From NCBI GenBank assembly GCA_016214465.1, contig JACROI010000025.1:1-37954 (forward strand): a stretch of 37,954 nt of DNA, written 5' to 3'. This DNA is from Candidatus Magasanikiibacteriota bacterium (GTDB taxonomy: Bacteria > Patescibacteriota > Patescibacteriia > Magasanikbacterales > UBA10003). Position numbers and translations under genes: made by a program. Of the stretch, positions 2,219-6,919 are shown piece after piece. The notes under the pieces are model-generated. The model searched no databases, was not told the origin of the DNA, and saw only the letters and a program-made list of their open reading frames with translations. Within the stretch, counting starts at the first letter, position 1, and each line of letters opens with the position of its first letter.

Positions 2219-3226
2219 ATGAAAAAAATGCCGGACAATCAAATAACTTTCTATCAATCACCGGACGGCTCGGTGAATATTGAAGTATTATTTGCCGAAG
2301 AGAACATTTGGCTAACTCAAAAAAAAATGGCTGAACTTTTTAGCATTGACAGAAGCGTGGTCACAAAACATCTTAAAAATATCTTTAGCGAAAAAGAAAT
2401 TGAAGAAAAATCAGTTAGTGCAAATTTTGCACATACTGCCGAAGACGGAAAAACTTATGAAACACAATTTTATTCCCTCGAAGCCATTATAGCGGTCGGT
2501 TATCGCGTGAATTCCGAGCGCGGTACGCAATTTCGTCAATGGGCCACGAGAATTTTAAAGAATTATATCCACAAGGGTTATACTTTAGATGTTAATCGGA
2601 TGAAATATGGCTCTCGCTTTAGCACTAGATATTTTGACGAGCTTTACGAAGAAATCAAAGATATCCGCACGAGCGAACGGATTATTTATCAAAAAATAAC
2701 TGACATTTACGCGACATCGATTGACTATTCGCCCAAAGCGTATGAGAGCAAAAAATTTTTTGCTACGGTGCAAAACAAACTTCATTTTGCCATAACCGGT
2801 AAAACCGCGGCAGAAATTATCACGAATCGCGCCAACAGCAAAAAAGACAAAATGGGATTAACTTCGTGGAGACGCTCTCCGCATGGGAAAATAATGCCGA
2901 GCGACACGGTGATCGCCAAAAATTATTTGGACAAGAAAGAAATAGAGCACCTGAATCGCATCGGCAATATGTATTTGGATTATGCCGAGATGCAAGCGGC
3001 GCGAGGCAAAGCGATGTCAATGAAAGATTGGACGGAAAAACTCAATGCCTTTCTAAAATTCAGCGAATACGAAATTTTGACAAATGCCGGCAAAATCAGT
3101 CGCGAGGTGGCGGAGGCGTTGGCGCTAAAAGAATATGAAAAATTTAGAAAAATTCAAAATAAAAACTATATATCCGATTTTGACCGCGAGGTTAAAAAAC
3201 TTTTAAAATCTAGAAAAGACAGATAA
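2219..3226 (+). CDS. Virulence RhuM family protein
   Basis: ENIWLTQKKMAELF, YSLEAIIAVGYRVNS, FRQWA, IRTSER and FFATVQNKLHFA motifs. Confidence 0.9.
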   Translation: MKKMPDNQITFYQSPDGSVNIEVLFAEENIWLTQKKMAELFSIDRSVVTKHLKNIFSEKEIEEKSVSANFAHTAEDGKTYETQFYSLEAIIAVGYRVNSERGTQFRQWATRILKNYIHKGYTLDVNRMKYGSRFSTRYFDELYEEIKDIRTSERIIYQKITDIYATSIDYSPKAYESKKFFATVQNKLHFAITGKTAAEIITNRANSKKDKMGLTSWRRSPHGKIMPSDTVIAKNYLDKKEIEHLNRIGNMYLDYAEMQAARGKAMSMKDWTEKLNAFLKFSEYEILTNAGKISREVAEALALKEYEKFRKIQNKNYISDFDREVKKLLKSRKDR

Positions 3227-3433: not shown

Positions 3434-4063
3434 CTACTCACACACGAGGATGCCGTGACTCTGCCTATTGAGCGGATTGTTAAAGAAAAAAAGTTTGAAT
3501 TCACGGTGCGCGCCGCGCACACTAGCAAAGGGTACAAAAGTTTTACCCATACCATCATCCGCCCACCGAGAACTGACACTTATGGCAAAGACCCACTCCC
3601 ATCTTCTCATTTCTCCTGGATAATCGTACATAAAACAGGCAAGGTCGCCAACATCAGCCAAAGTACGGCCAGCGGCCACGAGACGCGCCGCAGCTTGTTC
3701 ACCGGTCTCATCATCCAATAATGGTTCAACCCGCAAATTTACCGCACGGATACCTGTCCACGCCAACTTGAAATGCTCCGGTGTTAAATGCCGATTTATA
3801 TTCACGACATTTTTTTTCCCCACCGCCATCTTGATTAGAGCTCGAAGGCCGATCGCCTGATTGTAGATGGTTCGGAATGGGCCCCGCTTGATCACTTTCA
3901 AGTTACCATTGCGAAGCCCGGCGATAAGATCAAGGTGGGTAACTGCCCATCGGATGATTTCCGGATGGTCAGCAGCCCATCCCAACTCATCCGCCGTAAA
4001 GTGTCAGGCACGACGTTTCTCGAGTAAGTCGAACAGAATCCCTTCGTCAATCCTCTGGCCCAT
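3434..4063 (-). pseudogene. Hypothetical protein interrupted by an in-frame TGA at codon 20
   Basis: SD GAGGAGG 5 nt before ATG at 4063. MGQRIDEGILFDLLEKRRA*HFTADELGWAADHPE continues in frame into ORF 3434..3985. Confidence 0.65.
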
Positions 4064-4274: not shown

Positions 4275-5638
4275 TACACCTCCAAATACCTCTCTTTTTC
4301 CCACTCGGTCACAGCGATTCTGAATTCATCCCACTCTCGCATCTTAATTTCATAATACTTTTTGAACACTTCTTCGCCCAATGTGGCTCTCACTACCTCA
4401 TCTTTATCCAAAGCGCGCAGAGCGCCATATAAATCCGGCGGCAAGGTCTCAATGCCGCGACTGACTTTTTCCATTTCATTCAATTCATAAACATTTTCTT
4501 CAATGGATGCGGGACAAACACTCTTTTTTTCAATGCCGTCCAAACCGGCCGCGAGCATGCTGGCAAATACCAAATAAGGATTGGCTGATGGGTCTGGCGA
4601 GCGTAGTTCACAGCGCGTGGCTTTAGGTTTTTGAGGATTAATGCGCGGCACGCGAATCAAAGCAGAACGATTGGTGCGGCCCCAGCTCAAATATACCGGC
4701 GCTTCATAGCCGGCCACCAGCCGCTTGTAAGAATTCACCAGTGGATTCAAGATGGCGGACAAAGCTTTCACATGATTTAATTGTCCGGCAATAAAATATC
4801 GAGCCAAAGACGACAATCCATATGAATCGACCGGGTCAAAGAAAAGGTTTTGGTTGTCCTGAAACAAACTTTGATGCACATGCATGCCCGAGCCATTGAT
4901 TCCAAAAAACGGTTTGGGCATAAAAGTTGCGTGTAGCCCATAATGCGCGGCAATATTTTTCAACGCGTATTTTAGAGTAACCACGCTATCGGCCGCATTC
5001 AGGGCGTCGGTATATTTAAAATCAATTTCCTGCTGGCCATTGGCCACCTCGTGATGCAAGGCCTCCACATCAATGTTCAATTCCTGAAGCGCGCGCGTCA
5101 TTTCTTTTCTAACCTCGCCGGCTTTATCCAGAACTTGGTCAAAATAGCAGGCCTGATCGTGCGGCTCTTTCACCAATCCACCATCAAAATTTCGTTTCAA
5201 AAGAAAAAATTCCATTTCCGGGCCGACATAATAGGTGTAGCCGATATTCTTGGCGCGAACAATTTGTTTTTTTAAAATATATCGCGGGTCGCTCGCATAT
5301 GGCTCGCCGGCCGGTGTAAAAACATCACAGATAACGCGCGCGGTGACAGAATGCTTGATGGAATCATCTTTGAACAAGCCGTTGGTCCACGGTACAATCG
5401 CGAAAGTGCTCAAATCCAATTTCAAATACATATCGCTTTCAAAAATTCGCGCGAATCCTTCAATTGACGAACCGTCAAACCAAATGTTGTATTCAATGGC
5501 TTCGGGCAGTTTGGAAACCGGAATTGTCACGGCTTTTAATTGCCCCAATAAATCCGTGAACTGCAAGTCAATAAACTTGACATTGTTTTTTTGGCAAAGC
5601 GCCAATACTTCCTCCTTGTCCAAAGTATGGTCTGGCAT
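4271..5638 (-). CDS. glnA: Glutamine synthetase type I
   Basis: FDGSSIEGF, HHEVANGQQEI, ATFMPKP..GINGSGMHVHQSL, NSYKRLV.GYEAP and NRSALIRVP motifs. Start set at MPDHTL because the longer ORF overlaps tRNA-Asn. Confidence 0.96.
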   Translation of the reverse strand: MPDHTLDKEEVLALCQKNNVKFIDLQFTDLLGQLKAVTIPVSKLPEAIEYNIWFDGSSIEGFARIFESDMYLKLDLSTFAIVPWTNGLFKDDSIKHSVTARVICDVFTPAGEPYASDPRYILKKQIVRAKNIGYTYYVGPEMEFFLLKRNFDGGLVKEPHDQACYFDQVLDKAGEVRKEMTRALQELNIDVEALHHEVANGQQEIDFKYTDALNAADSVVTLKYALKNIAAHYGLHATFMPKPFFGINGSGMHVHQSLFQDNQNLFFDPVDSYGLSSLARYFIAGQLNHVKALSAILNPLVNSYKRLVAGYEAPVYLSWGRTNRSALIRVPRINPQKPKATRCELRSPDPSANPYLVFASMLAAGLDGIEKKSVCPASIEENVYELNEMEKVSRGIETLPPDLYGALRALDKDEVVRATLGEEVFKKYYEIKMREWDEFRIAVTEWEKERYLEVY

Positions 5639-5689
5639 ATGTTTGTGTGGATTGCCCACATTAAATAAATAATTTATTTTGCGACAAAT

Positions 5690-5761
5690 CTCTCGGGGAA
5701 GGAATCGAACCTTCACTATCCTCGTTAACAGCGAGGCGTTTTACCATTAAACTACCCGAGA
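5690..5761 (-). tRNA. tRNA-Asn (GTT)
   Basis: Cloverleaf: acceptor stem TCTCGGG/CCCGAGA, anticodon arm CTCG-ctGTTaa-CGAG, TTCGATT T-loop. No encoded CCA. Confidence 0.95.
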
Positions 5762-5779
5762 AAATTGACGCAAAGCCAT

Positions 5780-5812
5780 AAAATTAAAACACCCTCCAAG
5801 CGGTCGGAGGGT
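5780..5812 (-). terminator. Attenuator terminator (3:4 hairpin) upstream of tRNA-Asn/glnA
   Basis: ACCCTCCGA-ccgc-TTGGAGGGT stem followed by GTTTTAATTTT on the minus strand. Confidence 0.85.
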
Positions 5813-5838
5813 ATCTGATGCTATGATTTTCAGCGCAA

Positions 5839-5907
5839 TCAGAAAGCCCTCCGGCTCAAAGCGGAGTTATTATTATTGTTATTCAAGTTATACACAGTTC
5901 TTTTCAT
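5839..5907 (-). CDS. Poly-Asn leader peptide MKRTVYNLNNNNNNSALSRRAF (22 aa)
   Basis: ATG at 5907 to TGA at 5839. 7 Asn in 8 codons using mixed AAT/AAC. Overlaps alternative pairing segments of an attenuator. Confidence 0.85.
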   Translation of the reverse strand: MKRTVYNLNNNNNNSALSRRAF

Positions 5908-5913
5908 AAATAT

Positions 5914-5942
5914 ACTATACAATATCGGCTGGCCGCGGTCAA
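5914..5942 (-). promoter_or_regulatory. sigma70 promoter for a leaderless leader-peptide transcript
   Basis: TTGACC(5942-5937)-17 bp-TATAGT(5919-5914). The ATG starts 7 nt after the -10 box. The -35 overlaps the trpS TGA stop. Confidence 0.8.
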
Positions 5943-6919
5943 ATTAAACCAACTTTTTCTCTCACTTCCTTAATCTTTTTTTCTGCCAATTTTTGGGCGC
6001 GAACTTGCCCATCAGACAAAATTTTCAACACCGCTTTGTTATCAAAGGCGGATATTTTTTTCTGAATCGGTTGCAAAAATTTATTAATCTCTTGCGCCAA
6101 AGATTTTTTAAAATCCGCGTAACCCTGGCCGACAAATTCTTTTTCAGATTGCGCGATAGTTTGATTGGTTAATAAAGAATAAATTGTCAGAAGATTGGTG
6201 AGCGCCGGTTTGTCTTGGCCTGAAACAACATCTCGGCCGGAATCAGTGACGGCGCGAGCGATTTTTTTCTCCACTGTTTTAGTATCATCGGTCAAAGCGA
6301 TAAAATTAAAAGATGAAGCCGCGCTCTTGCTCATTTTCTTTAATGGATCATCCAATCCCATAATACGCGCGCCTTGTTTTTGCACCAAACATTCTGGCAC
6401 GACAAATGTCTCACCAAAATTTTCGTTAAACCGCCGCGCCAAAACGCGCGCCAATTCCACATGCTGTTTCTGGTCTTCGCCAACCGGCACAACGGCCGTG
6501 TCATACAGCAAAATATCAGCCGCCATTAAAACCGGATAAATGAACAAACCAGCATTGATATTTTCTTTATGCACAAGAGATTTATCTTTAAATTGCGTCA
6601 TTCGTTCCAATTCAGGCAGTTTAGTTATGGTATTTAAAATCCAAGCCAAATCGGCATGCTGCGGCACTTGCGATTGAACAAAAATTGTTGATTTTTGAAA
6701 ATCAAGCCCCAAAGCCAAATATATTTTCGCCAATTCAATTGTATTTCTCCTTAATTCTTCCGGCTTTTGACGCACAGTCAGGGCGTGCAAATCCACAATA
6801 CAAAAAATACTGTCGTATTTCTTGACCAATTCCAGCCACTGCTTAATGGCTCCCAAATAATTGCCCAAATGAATCATGCCGGACGGCTGAATGCCTGAAA
6901 AAAGACGAGGTGTATTCAT
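5939..6919 (-). CDS. trpS: Tryptophan--tRNA ligase
   Basis: SGIQPSG.IHLGNYLGA (HIGH), VPVGEDQKQH and KMSKS motifs. Confidence 0.97.
   Translation of the reverse strand: MNTPRLFSGIQPSGMIHLGNYLGAIKQWLELVKKYDSIFCIVDLHALTVRQKPEELRRNTIELAKIYLALGLDFQKSTIFVQSQVPQHADLAWILNTITKLPELERMTQFKDKSLVHKENINAGLFIYPVLMAADILLYDTAVVPVGEDQKQHVELARVLARRFNENFGETFVVPECLVQKQGARIMGLDDPLKKMSKSAASSFNFIALTDDTKTVEKKIARAVTDSGRDVVSGQDKPALTNLLTIYSLLTNQTIAQSEKEFVGQGYADFKKSLAQEINKFLQPIQKKISAFDNKAVLKILSDGQVRAQKLAEKKIKEVREKVGLI

Follow-up and report, generated by a model that had tools for sequence, protein, structure and literature searches.

On the minus strand of the window analysed here, the 37,954-nucleotide stretch of contig JACROI010000025.1 from a Candidatus Magasanikiibacteriota bacterium (assembly GCA_016214465.1), positions 5,942 to 5,690 hold a promoter, a small open reading frame (sORF) with a run of asparagine codons, alternative hairpins with a terminator, and a tRNA-Asn gene. 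We consider this element very likely to be an Asn-sensing, ribosome-mediated transcription attenuator of the tRNA-Asn gene. The feature is genuine, conserved widely and coherent in its mechanism, and comparative evidence from related genomes strongly supports its interpretation as an attenuator. Its anatomy, its conservation, its restriction to one kind of tRNA-Asn gene (type B), the placement of the leader stop codon relative to the antiterminator arm and the predicted alternative pairings can all be read directly from the DNA.

The promoter, start codon, reading frame and pairing segments that an earlier note on this DNA had described were all present on the minus strand, base for base and at the positions given there. 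The -35 hexamer TTGACC (5942-5937) and the -10 hexamer TATAGT (5919-5914) are separated by a 17-nt spacer, and 6 nt behind the latter lies the ATG (5907-5905) of the leaderless 22-codon ORF MKRTVYNLNNNNNNSALSRRAF, which extends over 5907-5839 and ends with a TGA stop (5841-5839). Its sensor codons, seven Asn in eight codons, occupy 5889-5866; the run was confirmed to mix both codons, with AAC at 5889-5887 followed by six AAT or AAC codons at 5883-5866. Segment 1 (CTCCG, 5866-5862) is a weak pairing partner of segment 2, the 5' arm of the antiterminator (5853-5838), which consists of CGGAGGG (5853-5847) and the inner-stem TCTGAT (5843-5838) and covers the stop codon. Segment 3 (5819-5805), with the inner-stem ATCAGA (5819-5814) and CCCTCCG (5811-5805), is common to antiterminator and terminator. 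Together with segment 4 (TGGAGGGT, 5798-5791) and the T tract GTTTTAATTTT, which ends at 5780, it makes up the intrinsic terminator. The type-B tRNA-Asn gene (anticodon GTT, 5762-5689) follows after a gap of 17 nt; it has U1-A72 and no encoded CCA and scored 73 bits with the Rfam tRNA model.

In the proposed mechanism, transcription would start at the ATG of the leaderless ORF or a few bases from it. With ample Asn-tRNA(Asn), the ribosome would reach the TGA and cover segment 2, within which the stop codon lies. Segment 3 could then pair with segment 4, and transcription would terminate at the T tract, 17 nt ahead of the tRNA. With scarce Asn-tRNA(Asn), the ribosome would stall among the seven Asn codons and leave segment 2 exposed. 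The exposed segment 2 would take up segment 3 as it emerges, no terminator would form, and read-through would continue into tRNA-Asn and, in this genus, into the glutamine synthetase gene glnA.

The distribution of the element was followed in successive genome samples. When positions 5960-5640 were searched against 61 genomes of the same order, 25 genomes matched; whole-leader matches came from two genomes of the same genus (87% identity), and the remaining matches extended over the tRNA only. Reading of the upstream DNA showed the same order of parts, i.e. promoter, ATG, Asn-run ORF, stop codon, hairpins, T tract and tRNA, at 21 of the 25 same-order tRNA-Asn loci. In a class-wide sample, type B matched in 60 of 301 genomes, and 30 loci and 20 further regions were inspected. 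One further class member with a leader came from a sample of 401 genomes across the phylum. In this sample, where the BLAST query favours type-B-like tRNAs, none of the 12 tRNA-Asn loci that belonged to other classes had a convincing leader. A leader was counted when an ATG-started ORF of at most 45 amino acids (aa) held at least three Asn in eight codons. By this criterion 64 of 69 type-B loci (47 + 1 + 1 + 15 of the 52 + 1 + 1 + 15 loci from the successive samples) carried a leader, and 59 of 69 (43 + 1 + 1 + 14) did so by the stricter threshold of at least four Asn in eight codons. Duplicates (L057, L058) and rows with a tRNA other than tRNA-Asn (L026, L055, L073, L176, L183, L201, L203, L204, L209) had been removed before this tally, and the 52-locus set excludes one type-A gene for which no more than 21 nt of upstream sequence were available.

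The leader-bearing genomes represent at least 25 coded families within the class of the window genome, and at many homologous loci the upstream gene differs from trpS, which precedes the element in the window. The stem sequences and the non-Asn residues were unrelated between loci, and the stems were complementary within each locus. The leader was found at none of 30 loci of the other kind of tRNA-Asn gene, type A, and reading of type-A loci from the 61 same-order genomes gave no Asn leader at 29 loci; one more type-A tRNA-Asn without leader (L205) stands outside the 30. On phage contigs, the criterion of at least four Asn fired once among 80 type-B-like tRNA-Asn sites, weakly and on an atypical 41-aa ORF. 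DNA of the locus was present in two groundwater metagenome runs of one study, one of which may come from the source sample, and the run search listed no RNA data set with the locus. At the exceptional locus L068 (G130:C1, tRNA at 241160), an Asn run (NNNNNPAGGW-stop) lies one frame off the promoter-proximal ATG, after seven A; the offset reflects an assembly error at the homopolymer or else a true frameshift in the leader.

Several features of the leaders point to translation. The ATG was in the Asn frame at 47 of 52 loci, although the Ile frame of the AAY run is open as well, and interruptions of the run were whole sense codons (Leu, Ser, Asp, Ile, Arg) with no frame-breaking indels. In the 47 leaders, AAT (209 codons) and AAC (71 codons) occurred in the ratio that is also seen in the long ORFs of the genome (7211 to 2301). 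The putative peptides comprise 12-22 aa with 3-10 Asn; many begin with MK, and the conserved part is the Asn run only. The promoter scored at least 9 of 12 positions in 43 of 47 leaders, with a perfect TTGACA in 27 of 47, scores that are biased upward since the assignment takes the best-scoring combination. The distance from the -10 element to the ATG was 6-11 nt in all leaders with an assignable promoter (45 of 47), so that the 5' untranslated region would measure about 0-5 nt and leave no room for a Shine-Dalgarno site, which backs the leaderless start suggested for the window. At the other end of the leader, the T tract started no more than 20 nt from the tRNA at 21 of 45 loci and no more than 35 nt from it at 33 of 45. 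With the T tract so close, there is no room for a separate promoter in most loci, and the tRNA should be reachable by read-through only. Since the downstream genes vary between loci, the conserved target appears to be tRNA-Asn.

Folding of the window RNA gave the switch that the earlier note had predicted for calculations with and without a ribosome mask. The isolated hairpins were computed at -24.3 kcal/mol (2:3) and -17.8 kcal/mol (3:4). Nascent RNA 5861-5801, which represents a ribosome in the Asn run and a segment 4 not yet made, took the fold of the 2:3 antiterminator (z = -4.15). For a ribosome at the stop codon, RNA 5827-5801 was unstructured and 5827-5782 adopted the terminator fold (-18.3 kcal/mol, z = -4.78). 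The stalled-state folds of the window are nearly equal in energy; therefore the decision must be kinetic, resting on the order of folding.

The same calculation was extended to 45 loci, each with a recognisable local terminator (45 of 47 leaders; L017 and L025 lacked one by the criterion used). Before segment 4 was included, the 5' arm of the terminator was paired upstream with a mean of 0.79, 0.80 and 0.66 when the ribosome was placed on the first, middle and last Asn codon, respectively, compared with 0.10 for a ribosome at the stop codon and 0.46 when the upstream part was shuffled. Capture of at least 70% of the arm was predicted for 35 of 45 loci with the ribosome on the middle Asn codon versus 0 of 45 at the stop, and capture in the stalled state exceeded the locus's own shuffled mean in 44 of 45. 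At all 45 loci the capturing segment began between -13 and +11 nt from the first base of the stop codon, which is the position of a terminating ribosome, and as a whole it fell between -13 and +17 nt. In equilibrium folds through segment 4, all 45 loci had the terminator when the ribosome was at the stop, compared with 16 of 45 in the stalled state and 25 of 45 without ribosome.

The four-segment trp/his/thr geometry proposed for the window was borne out in its 2:3 and 3:4 switch and is doubtful in the pairing of segments 1 and 2. The 1:2 hairpin of the window has 5 bp and is weak (-6.0 kcal/mol), and in 22 of 47 leaders no more than 1-3 codons separate the Asn run from the stop. As such short leaders have no room for a 1:2 hairpin and show no counterpart of it, this hairpin is no general feature of the family, and the conserved core consists of three segments.

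Because the helices shift register between loci, pairing of each locus with itself and with other loci was tested first. A 33-nt window around the stop codon paired with the terminator arm of its own locus at a mean of -1.228 kcal/mol per nt of arm (45 loci), compared with -0.853 kcal/mol per nt for the arms of the other 44 loci, and 0 of 10,000 permutations reached the own-arm mean. As arms are shared among relatives, this test is conservative. In the control, the first 33 nt of the ORF, own and cross values (-0.291 and -0.269) did not differ. The search of relatives for Asn-run sORFs with compensating stems, which the earlier note had put forward as a check, was clearly positive. Column tests were made on a sequence-only MAFFT alignment of 42 leaders. 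The terminator columns were 80.6% paired with 25 compensatory cells, and 0 of 500 shuffles were as high. RNAalifold on this alignment returned only three pairs, all of them in the terminator, a low yield that reflects the loss of helix register in a sequence-only alignment; weight was therefore given to the folds of single loci and to the permutation of arms across loci. Alignment columns ~51-57 show a conserved T run directly after segment 2 (consensus GnGnTTTT), and columns ~70-77 a conserved A run (ATAAAAA) ahead of segment 3; the two runs would extend the antiterminator helix by A-U pairs. Segment 2 together with the T run also looks like the 3' half of the terminator.

The composition of the window was also compared with chance. 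Only two of the 1,649,628 eight-codon windows in six frames of the whole 826-kb genome contain seven Asn; one is the leader ORF and the other holds a stop codon, which makes the Asn density of the leader the top value in the genome. Asn accounts for 4.7% of the residues in the long ORFs of the genome, and the G+C content across the window is 37-49%, so the Asn run is no by-product of extreme A+T. The leader promoter was the top match within 3.2 kb, agreeing at 10 of 12 positions; 13 pairs were counted in the terminator-like site at 5816-5787. Overall, the simple site scans yielded numbers similar to those in shuffled DNA (8 promoter-like sites versus 6.3 expected, 5 terminator-like sites versus 4.0). 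The fold of 5907-5770 (-36 kcal/mol, z = -2.57) was equalled by 1 of 200 shuffles. The leader before tRNA-Asn is the sole case in the genome of a tRNA preceded by an sORF with a run of the tRNA's own codons; the other flagged sORF, before tRNA-Ala, has three Ala in six codons and no run. It is likewise the only leaderless homo-residue sORF of the genome that is followed by a terminator hairpin and a T tract.

A number of observations weigh against an Asn-sensing attenuator. Five of the 69 type-B loci have no leader (at the exceptions L007, L010, L018 and L023 a promoter lies directly ahead of the tRNA), five leaders have only three Asn, and relatives are non-independent samples. The T tract of the window is interrupted (TGTTTTAATTTT) and hence imperfect. 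The minimum-energy fold of the stalled-state RNA 5861-5782 holds the terminator although segment 2 is unmasked (-31.5 kcal/mol); a start at 5864, i.e. a mask shorter by 3 nt, gave the antiterminator with no terminator in the minimum-energy fold. Likewise, the terminator wins at equilibrium in the stalled state at the 16 of 45 loci mentioned above. When no ribosome is placed on the RNA, the fold of minimum energy is the antiterminator in the window and at 20 of 45 loci, so the element would be 'on' if the leader were simply untranslated. Covariation in the antiterminator columns was modest: 70.5% of the cells were paired versus 67.7% in shuffled alignments, a level reached by 29 of 500 shuffles, while the covariation score was reached by 15 of 500, and a partner slid by one column scored almost equally. 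The transcription start, translation of the sORF, the efficiency of termination and the response to Asn are all deduced from sequence, and the benefit of extra tRNA-Asn is something we infer; same-order genomes without asnS above the cut-off appear to have type-A tRNA-Asn only.

Some of these observations would also fit a conditional terminator that is not translated, in which a protein binds the A-rich AAY run, or the run pairs with the tRNA-Asn anticodon GUU like a T-box specifier, and this binding selects terminator or antiterminator. An antiterminator/terminator pair is adjoined by codons that match the downstream tRNA, which is T-box logic too; the antiterminator is often the minimum-energy fold without ribosome, and translation of the sORF is a prediction. 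Yet no T-box or other leader family exceeded its threshold in Rfam, the ATG lies 6-11 nt past a consensus promoter and in the Asn frame at 47 of 52 loci, and an in-frame stop is found on or just ahead of the antiterminator arm at 45 of 45. As the run is, moreover, broken by whole codons only and AAT and AAC vary synonymously, we regard an untranslated switch as improbable. Still less credible is that the hairpin and T tract merely form a constitutive terminator or insulator for trpS, with an irrelevant sORF and a tRNA transcribed by leaky read-through or from an unrecognised start. The terminator does lie ~130 nt past trpS, and the promoter and terminator scans (8 versus 6.3 and 5 versus 4.0) resemble those of shuffled DNA. 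However, the unit is kept where the upstream gene is not trpS, a strong promoter stands between trpS and the terminator, Asn-rich sORFs are missing at the 30 type-A loci and at 79 of 80 phage sites, most loci have no room for another promoter, and the stop-codon window covaries with the terminator arm.

The sORF might instead encode a functional Asn-rich micropeptide, such as a signal or the precursor of a peptide that is made on ribosomes and modified after translation (RiPP), its position before the tRNA being incidental or a matter of co-expression only. The sORF is conserved and probably translated and many of the peptides start with MK, but conservation is confined to the Asn run, length (12-22 aa) and flanking residues are free, no modifying or export genes are conserved nearby, and the stop codon is tied to the RNA switch; we give this explanation very little credence. 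A further possibility keeps the attenuator and changes its trigger to the loss of functional tRNA-Asn through an anticodon nuclease or a toxin from a competitor or phage, with type B as a spare for damaged type A. There are two sequence-distinct tRNA-Asn genes, only the second of which would be inducible, and type-B genes occur at recombinase and integration hot spots; in mycobacteria, work on VapC4 reportedly shows that stalling caused by a tRNA-cleaving toxin engages Cys sORFs. No nuclease or toxin was linked to the locus, though, and the glnA linkage points to amide and nitrogen metabolism. The mechanism would be identical to that of the Asn-sensing attenuator and differ in the trigger alone, and we think a damage trigger unlikely, if less so than the other alternatives.

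An attenuator responding to Asn supply has to be seen in the context of two kinds of tRNA-Asn. The genome encodes a second tRNA-Asn(GTT), of type A, at C36:1658-1732 (locus L028), which shows the canonical GCTCAGTGGTAGAGC D-arm, encodes its CCA and has a promoter immediately ahead. Comparison of 30 type-A and 53 type-B genes revealed consistent differences at 11-24 (U-A instead of C-G in type B), at 26-27 and in the variable region, and many relatives carry both types. The self-feedback that the earlier note had assumed is therefore to be qualified: the attenuated gene is indeed tRNA-Asn, but with a constitutive type-A gene on C36 it is not the only reader of Asn codons in the cell. Induction of type B over the constitutive type-A baseline would still form a negative feedback loop on Asn-decoding capacity. 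A division of labour in which type B is dedicated to the amidation route and type A to AsnRS was considered and is unsupported, as U1-A72 was found in both types. Eight of the 61 same-order genomes had no asnS match over the cut-off. They belong to families without a type-B match, except G057, whose asnS match is cut by contig ends. Since genomes lacking asnS seem to manage with type A alone, type B would be unneeded for amidation as such. The idea that the presence of the leader tracks the kind of AspRS (archaeal or bacterial) was likewise unsupported, both kinds being represented among leader-bearing genomes.

Several type-B loci bear traces of recombination. A partial 5' copy of tRNA-Asn lies between the terminator and the intact tRNA at L060, L063, L064, L065, L067, L024, L062 and L072. 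Large serine recombinase genes are located just downstream on the other strand at L009, L011 and L020, and the downstream ORF of L011 gave hits to Resolvase, Recombinase and Zn_ribbon_recom. Integration seems to occur preferentially at type-B tRNA-Asn, an apparent hot spot.

In the window, glnA, encoding a type I glutamine synthetase, follows 50 nt past the tRNA (5638-4271, minus strand, ATG at 5638; TIGR00653 532.1 bits, cut-off 429.15). No promoter-like or terminator-like site was detected on the same strand between tRNA-Asn and glnA in the window scan, and co-transcription of the two genes is likely from this arrangement. Among the 61 same-order genomes, glnA exceeded the cut-off in five (G000, G001, G002, G037, G042), always downstream of the leader-tRNA unit on the same strand and directly next to it in four. 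This linkage lends indirect support to the control of glnA suggested earlier, and on balance we favour co-regulation of glnA by the element in this genus. In G037 (L186, G037:C6) a gene for a 199-aa LysE-type translocator (PF01810, 63.5 bits) is inserted between tRNA-Asn and glnA on the same strand. The G037 glnA is 71% identical to the window copy. The closest named relative of the latter comes from a Candidatus Magasanikbacteria metagenome-assembled genome (MAG; 91% identity), and beyond the group the most similar copies, which come from MAGs of archaea and Bacillota, show only ~55% identity, which suggests that glnA is an old lateral acquisition set beside the tRNA-Asn unit.

The metabolic setting was assessed from profile matches, which give family names in place of assays, in a genome with a completeness of 97.6%. 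AsnRS is encoded at C32:204-1481 (448 bits in the genome profile search, 446.9 bits with hmmscan) and directly adjoins an aspartate--tRNA(Asn) ligase at C32:2143-3456 (NF003483 504.7 bits, cut-off 353; TIGR00458 368.9 bits, cut-off 368.4). The latter, archaeal-type by NCBIfam, is the only AspRS of the genome, no bacterial-type AspRS being found over the cut-off. The genome contains gatB and gatA (588.7 bits). It gave no match to asnA, and its best scores for asnB (34 bits, cut-off 267) and glnS (46.6 bits, cut-off 425.8) remained under the cut-offs. The pairing of AsnRS and AspRS side by side (loci L089 and L091 of the present genome, G000) is repeated in relatives of family f1, and extra AsnRS-like paralogues occur in G005 and G049. 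The gene set matches that of organisms which, in PMC4206432, are said to make asparagine on tRNA only.

In such a setting, extra tRNA-Asn, with glutamine from GlnA as amide donor, could raise the formation of Asn-tRNA when free Asn is short. We put forward only tentatively, as a rather doubtful proposition, that type-B tRNA-Asn serves as an inducible scaffold for on-tRNA asparagine synthesis via the aspartate--tRNA(Asn) ligase and GatCAB. If this were true, the unit would in effect be an operon for amino-acid biosynthesis in which an RNA takes the place of the regulated 'enzyme', and glnA, with the LysE-type translocator in one genus, would have been recruited to supply or balance the amide donor. 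Asparagine would then be the sole amino acid whose supply is sensed and regulated by these bacteria, which are reduced and otherwise auxotrophic.

Leader-peptide attenuation is a textbook mechanism that has been described for enzyme and synthetase genes. Like the enterobacterial attenuators (trp, his, leu, thr, pheA, ilv; pheST), the present element has a short ORF with tandem codons for the sensed amino acid and mutually exclusive antiterminator and terminator hairpins, and it shares with them the predicted logic that a ribosome at the stop codon blocks the antiterminator whereas a stalled ribosome permits it, under kinetic control. In the trp attenuator, too, the 3:4 helix is more stable than 2:3 and the decision is kinetic. 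Unlike these systems, the element would sense Asn, its target is a tRNA and not an enzyme or synthetase gene, its start is leaderless instead of preceded by a Shine-Dalgarno site, and its core has three segments, with 1:2 weak or absent. The structural hallmarks of a leader-peptide attenuator, namely clustered codons, an intrinsic terminator, an exclusive antiterminator and the placement of the stop codon, are all present. The element departs from the class, which regulates biosynthetic or synthetase genes, in that its conserved target is tRNA-Asn and that glnA follows in only five genomes. The tRNA target is the point of novelty and no argument against an attenuator mechanism.

Only tRNA reached the gathering score in Rfam. 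The T-box model (RF00230) gave no match at E values up to 10 on either strand of 5500-6100. Membership in Phe_leader (RF01859) was rejected; the match at 5783-5877 on the minus strand scored 22.5 bits against a gathering threshold of 55 (E = 0.25) and shows a similar hairpin layout only. To go by its title, work by Saad et al. in 2012 (J Biol Chem 287:20382) reportedly deals with T-box control of tRNA-dependent asparagine formation in Clostridium acetobutylicum, which likewise would couple the state of tRNA-Asn to the indirect Asn-tRNA pathway through a switch in a leader RNA. That T-box binds tRNA directly, whereas here the sensor would be the translating ribosome and the product is the tRNA itself.

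Leaderless leader peptides have precedents. In Deinococcus deserti, a member of another phylum, transcripts start right at the AUG of small peptides rich in one residue, and in PMC4007540 a role in transcription attenuation is predicted for fourteen of these leaderless peptides. The term 'Asn' does not occur in the main text of that paper; the peptides are given in Supplementary Table S9, which may bear on an Asn case. The polycysteine leaderless sORFs of mycobacteria also consist of a run of one codon at which stalling remodels downstream RNA and raises operon expression, but, according to 10.1101/834739, they sense Cys and control protein-coding genes of cysteine metabolism. An Asn leader peptide or an attenuator ahead of a tRNA gene was not found in full-text literature searches, which did not extend to subscription journals and supplements. 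The impression of the earlier note that an attenuator with its cognate tRNA as target is unfamiliar thus stood up in the literature covered.

In the window, the element lies directly behind trpS (6919-5939, minus strand; TIGR00233 367.9 bits), which is not part of it. The trpS stop codon (TGA, 5941-5939) is contained in the -35 region of the leader promoter (ATT TGA CC), and the leader begins 32 nt past the end of trpS. This 32-nt gap holds no terminator, so read-through from trpS would reach the leader with an untranslated 5' extension. Past glnA, a RhuM-family gene (2219-3226, plus strand; PF13310 341.5 bits) and a 183-aa ORF without Pfam match (3434-3985, minus strand) may be remains of a mobile element.

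Attenuation logic wired to the very tRNA that reads the sensor codons would provide direct feedback from decoding demand to tRNA supply. The patescibacterial hosts (Patescibacteria, also termed candidate phyla radiation) are uncultured and, to our knowledge, almost nothing has been described of their gene regulation. The element would thus represent a rare regulatory circuit in this group with a clear logic that can be tested in vitro. Many genomes of the class keep a constitutive together with a putatively inducible tRNA-Asn, which, combined with the glnA link, leads to a testable hypothesis on how these bacteria may secure their supply of asparagine.

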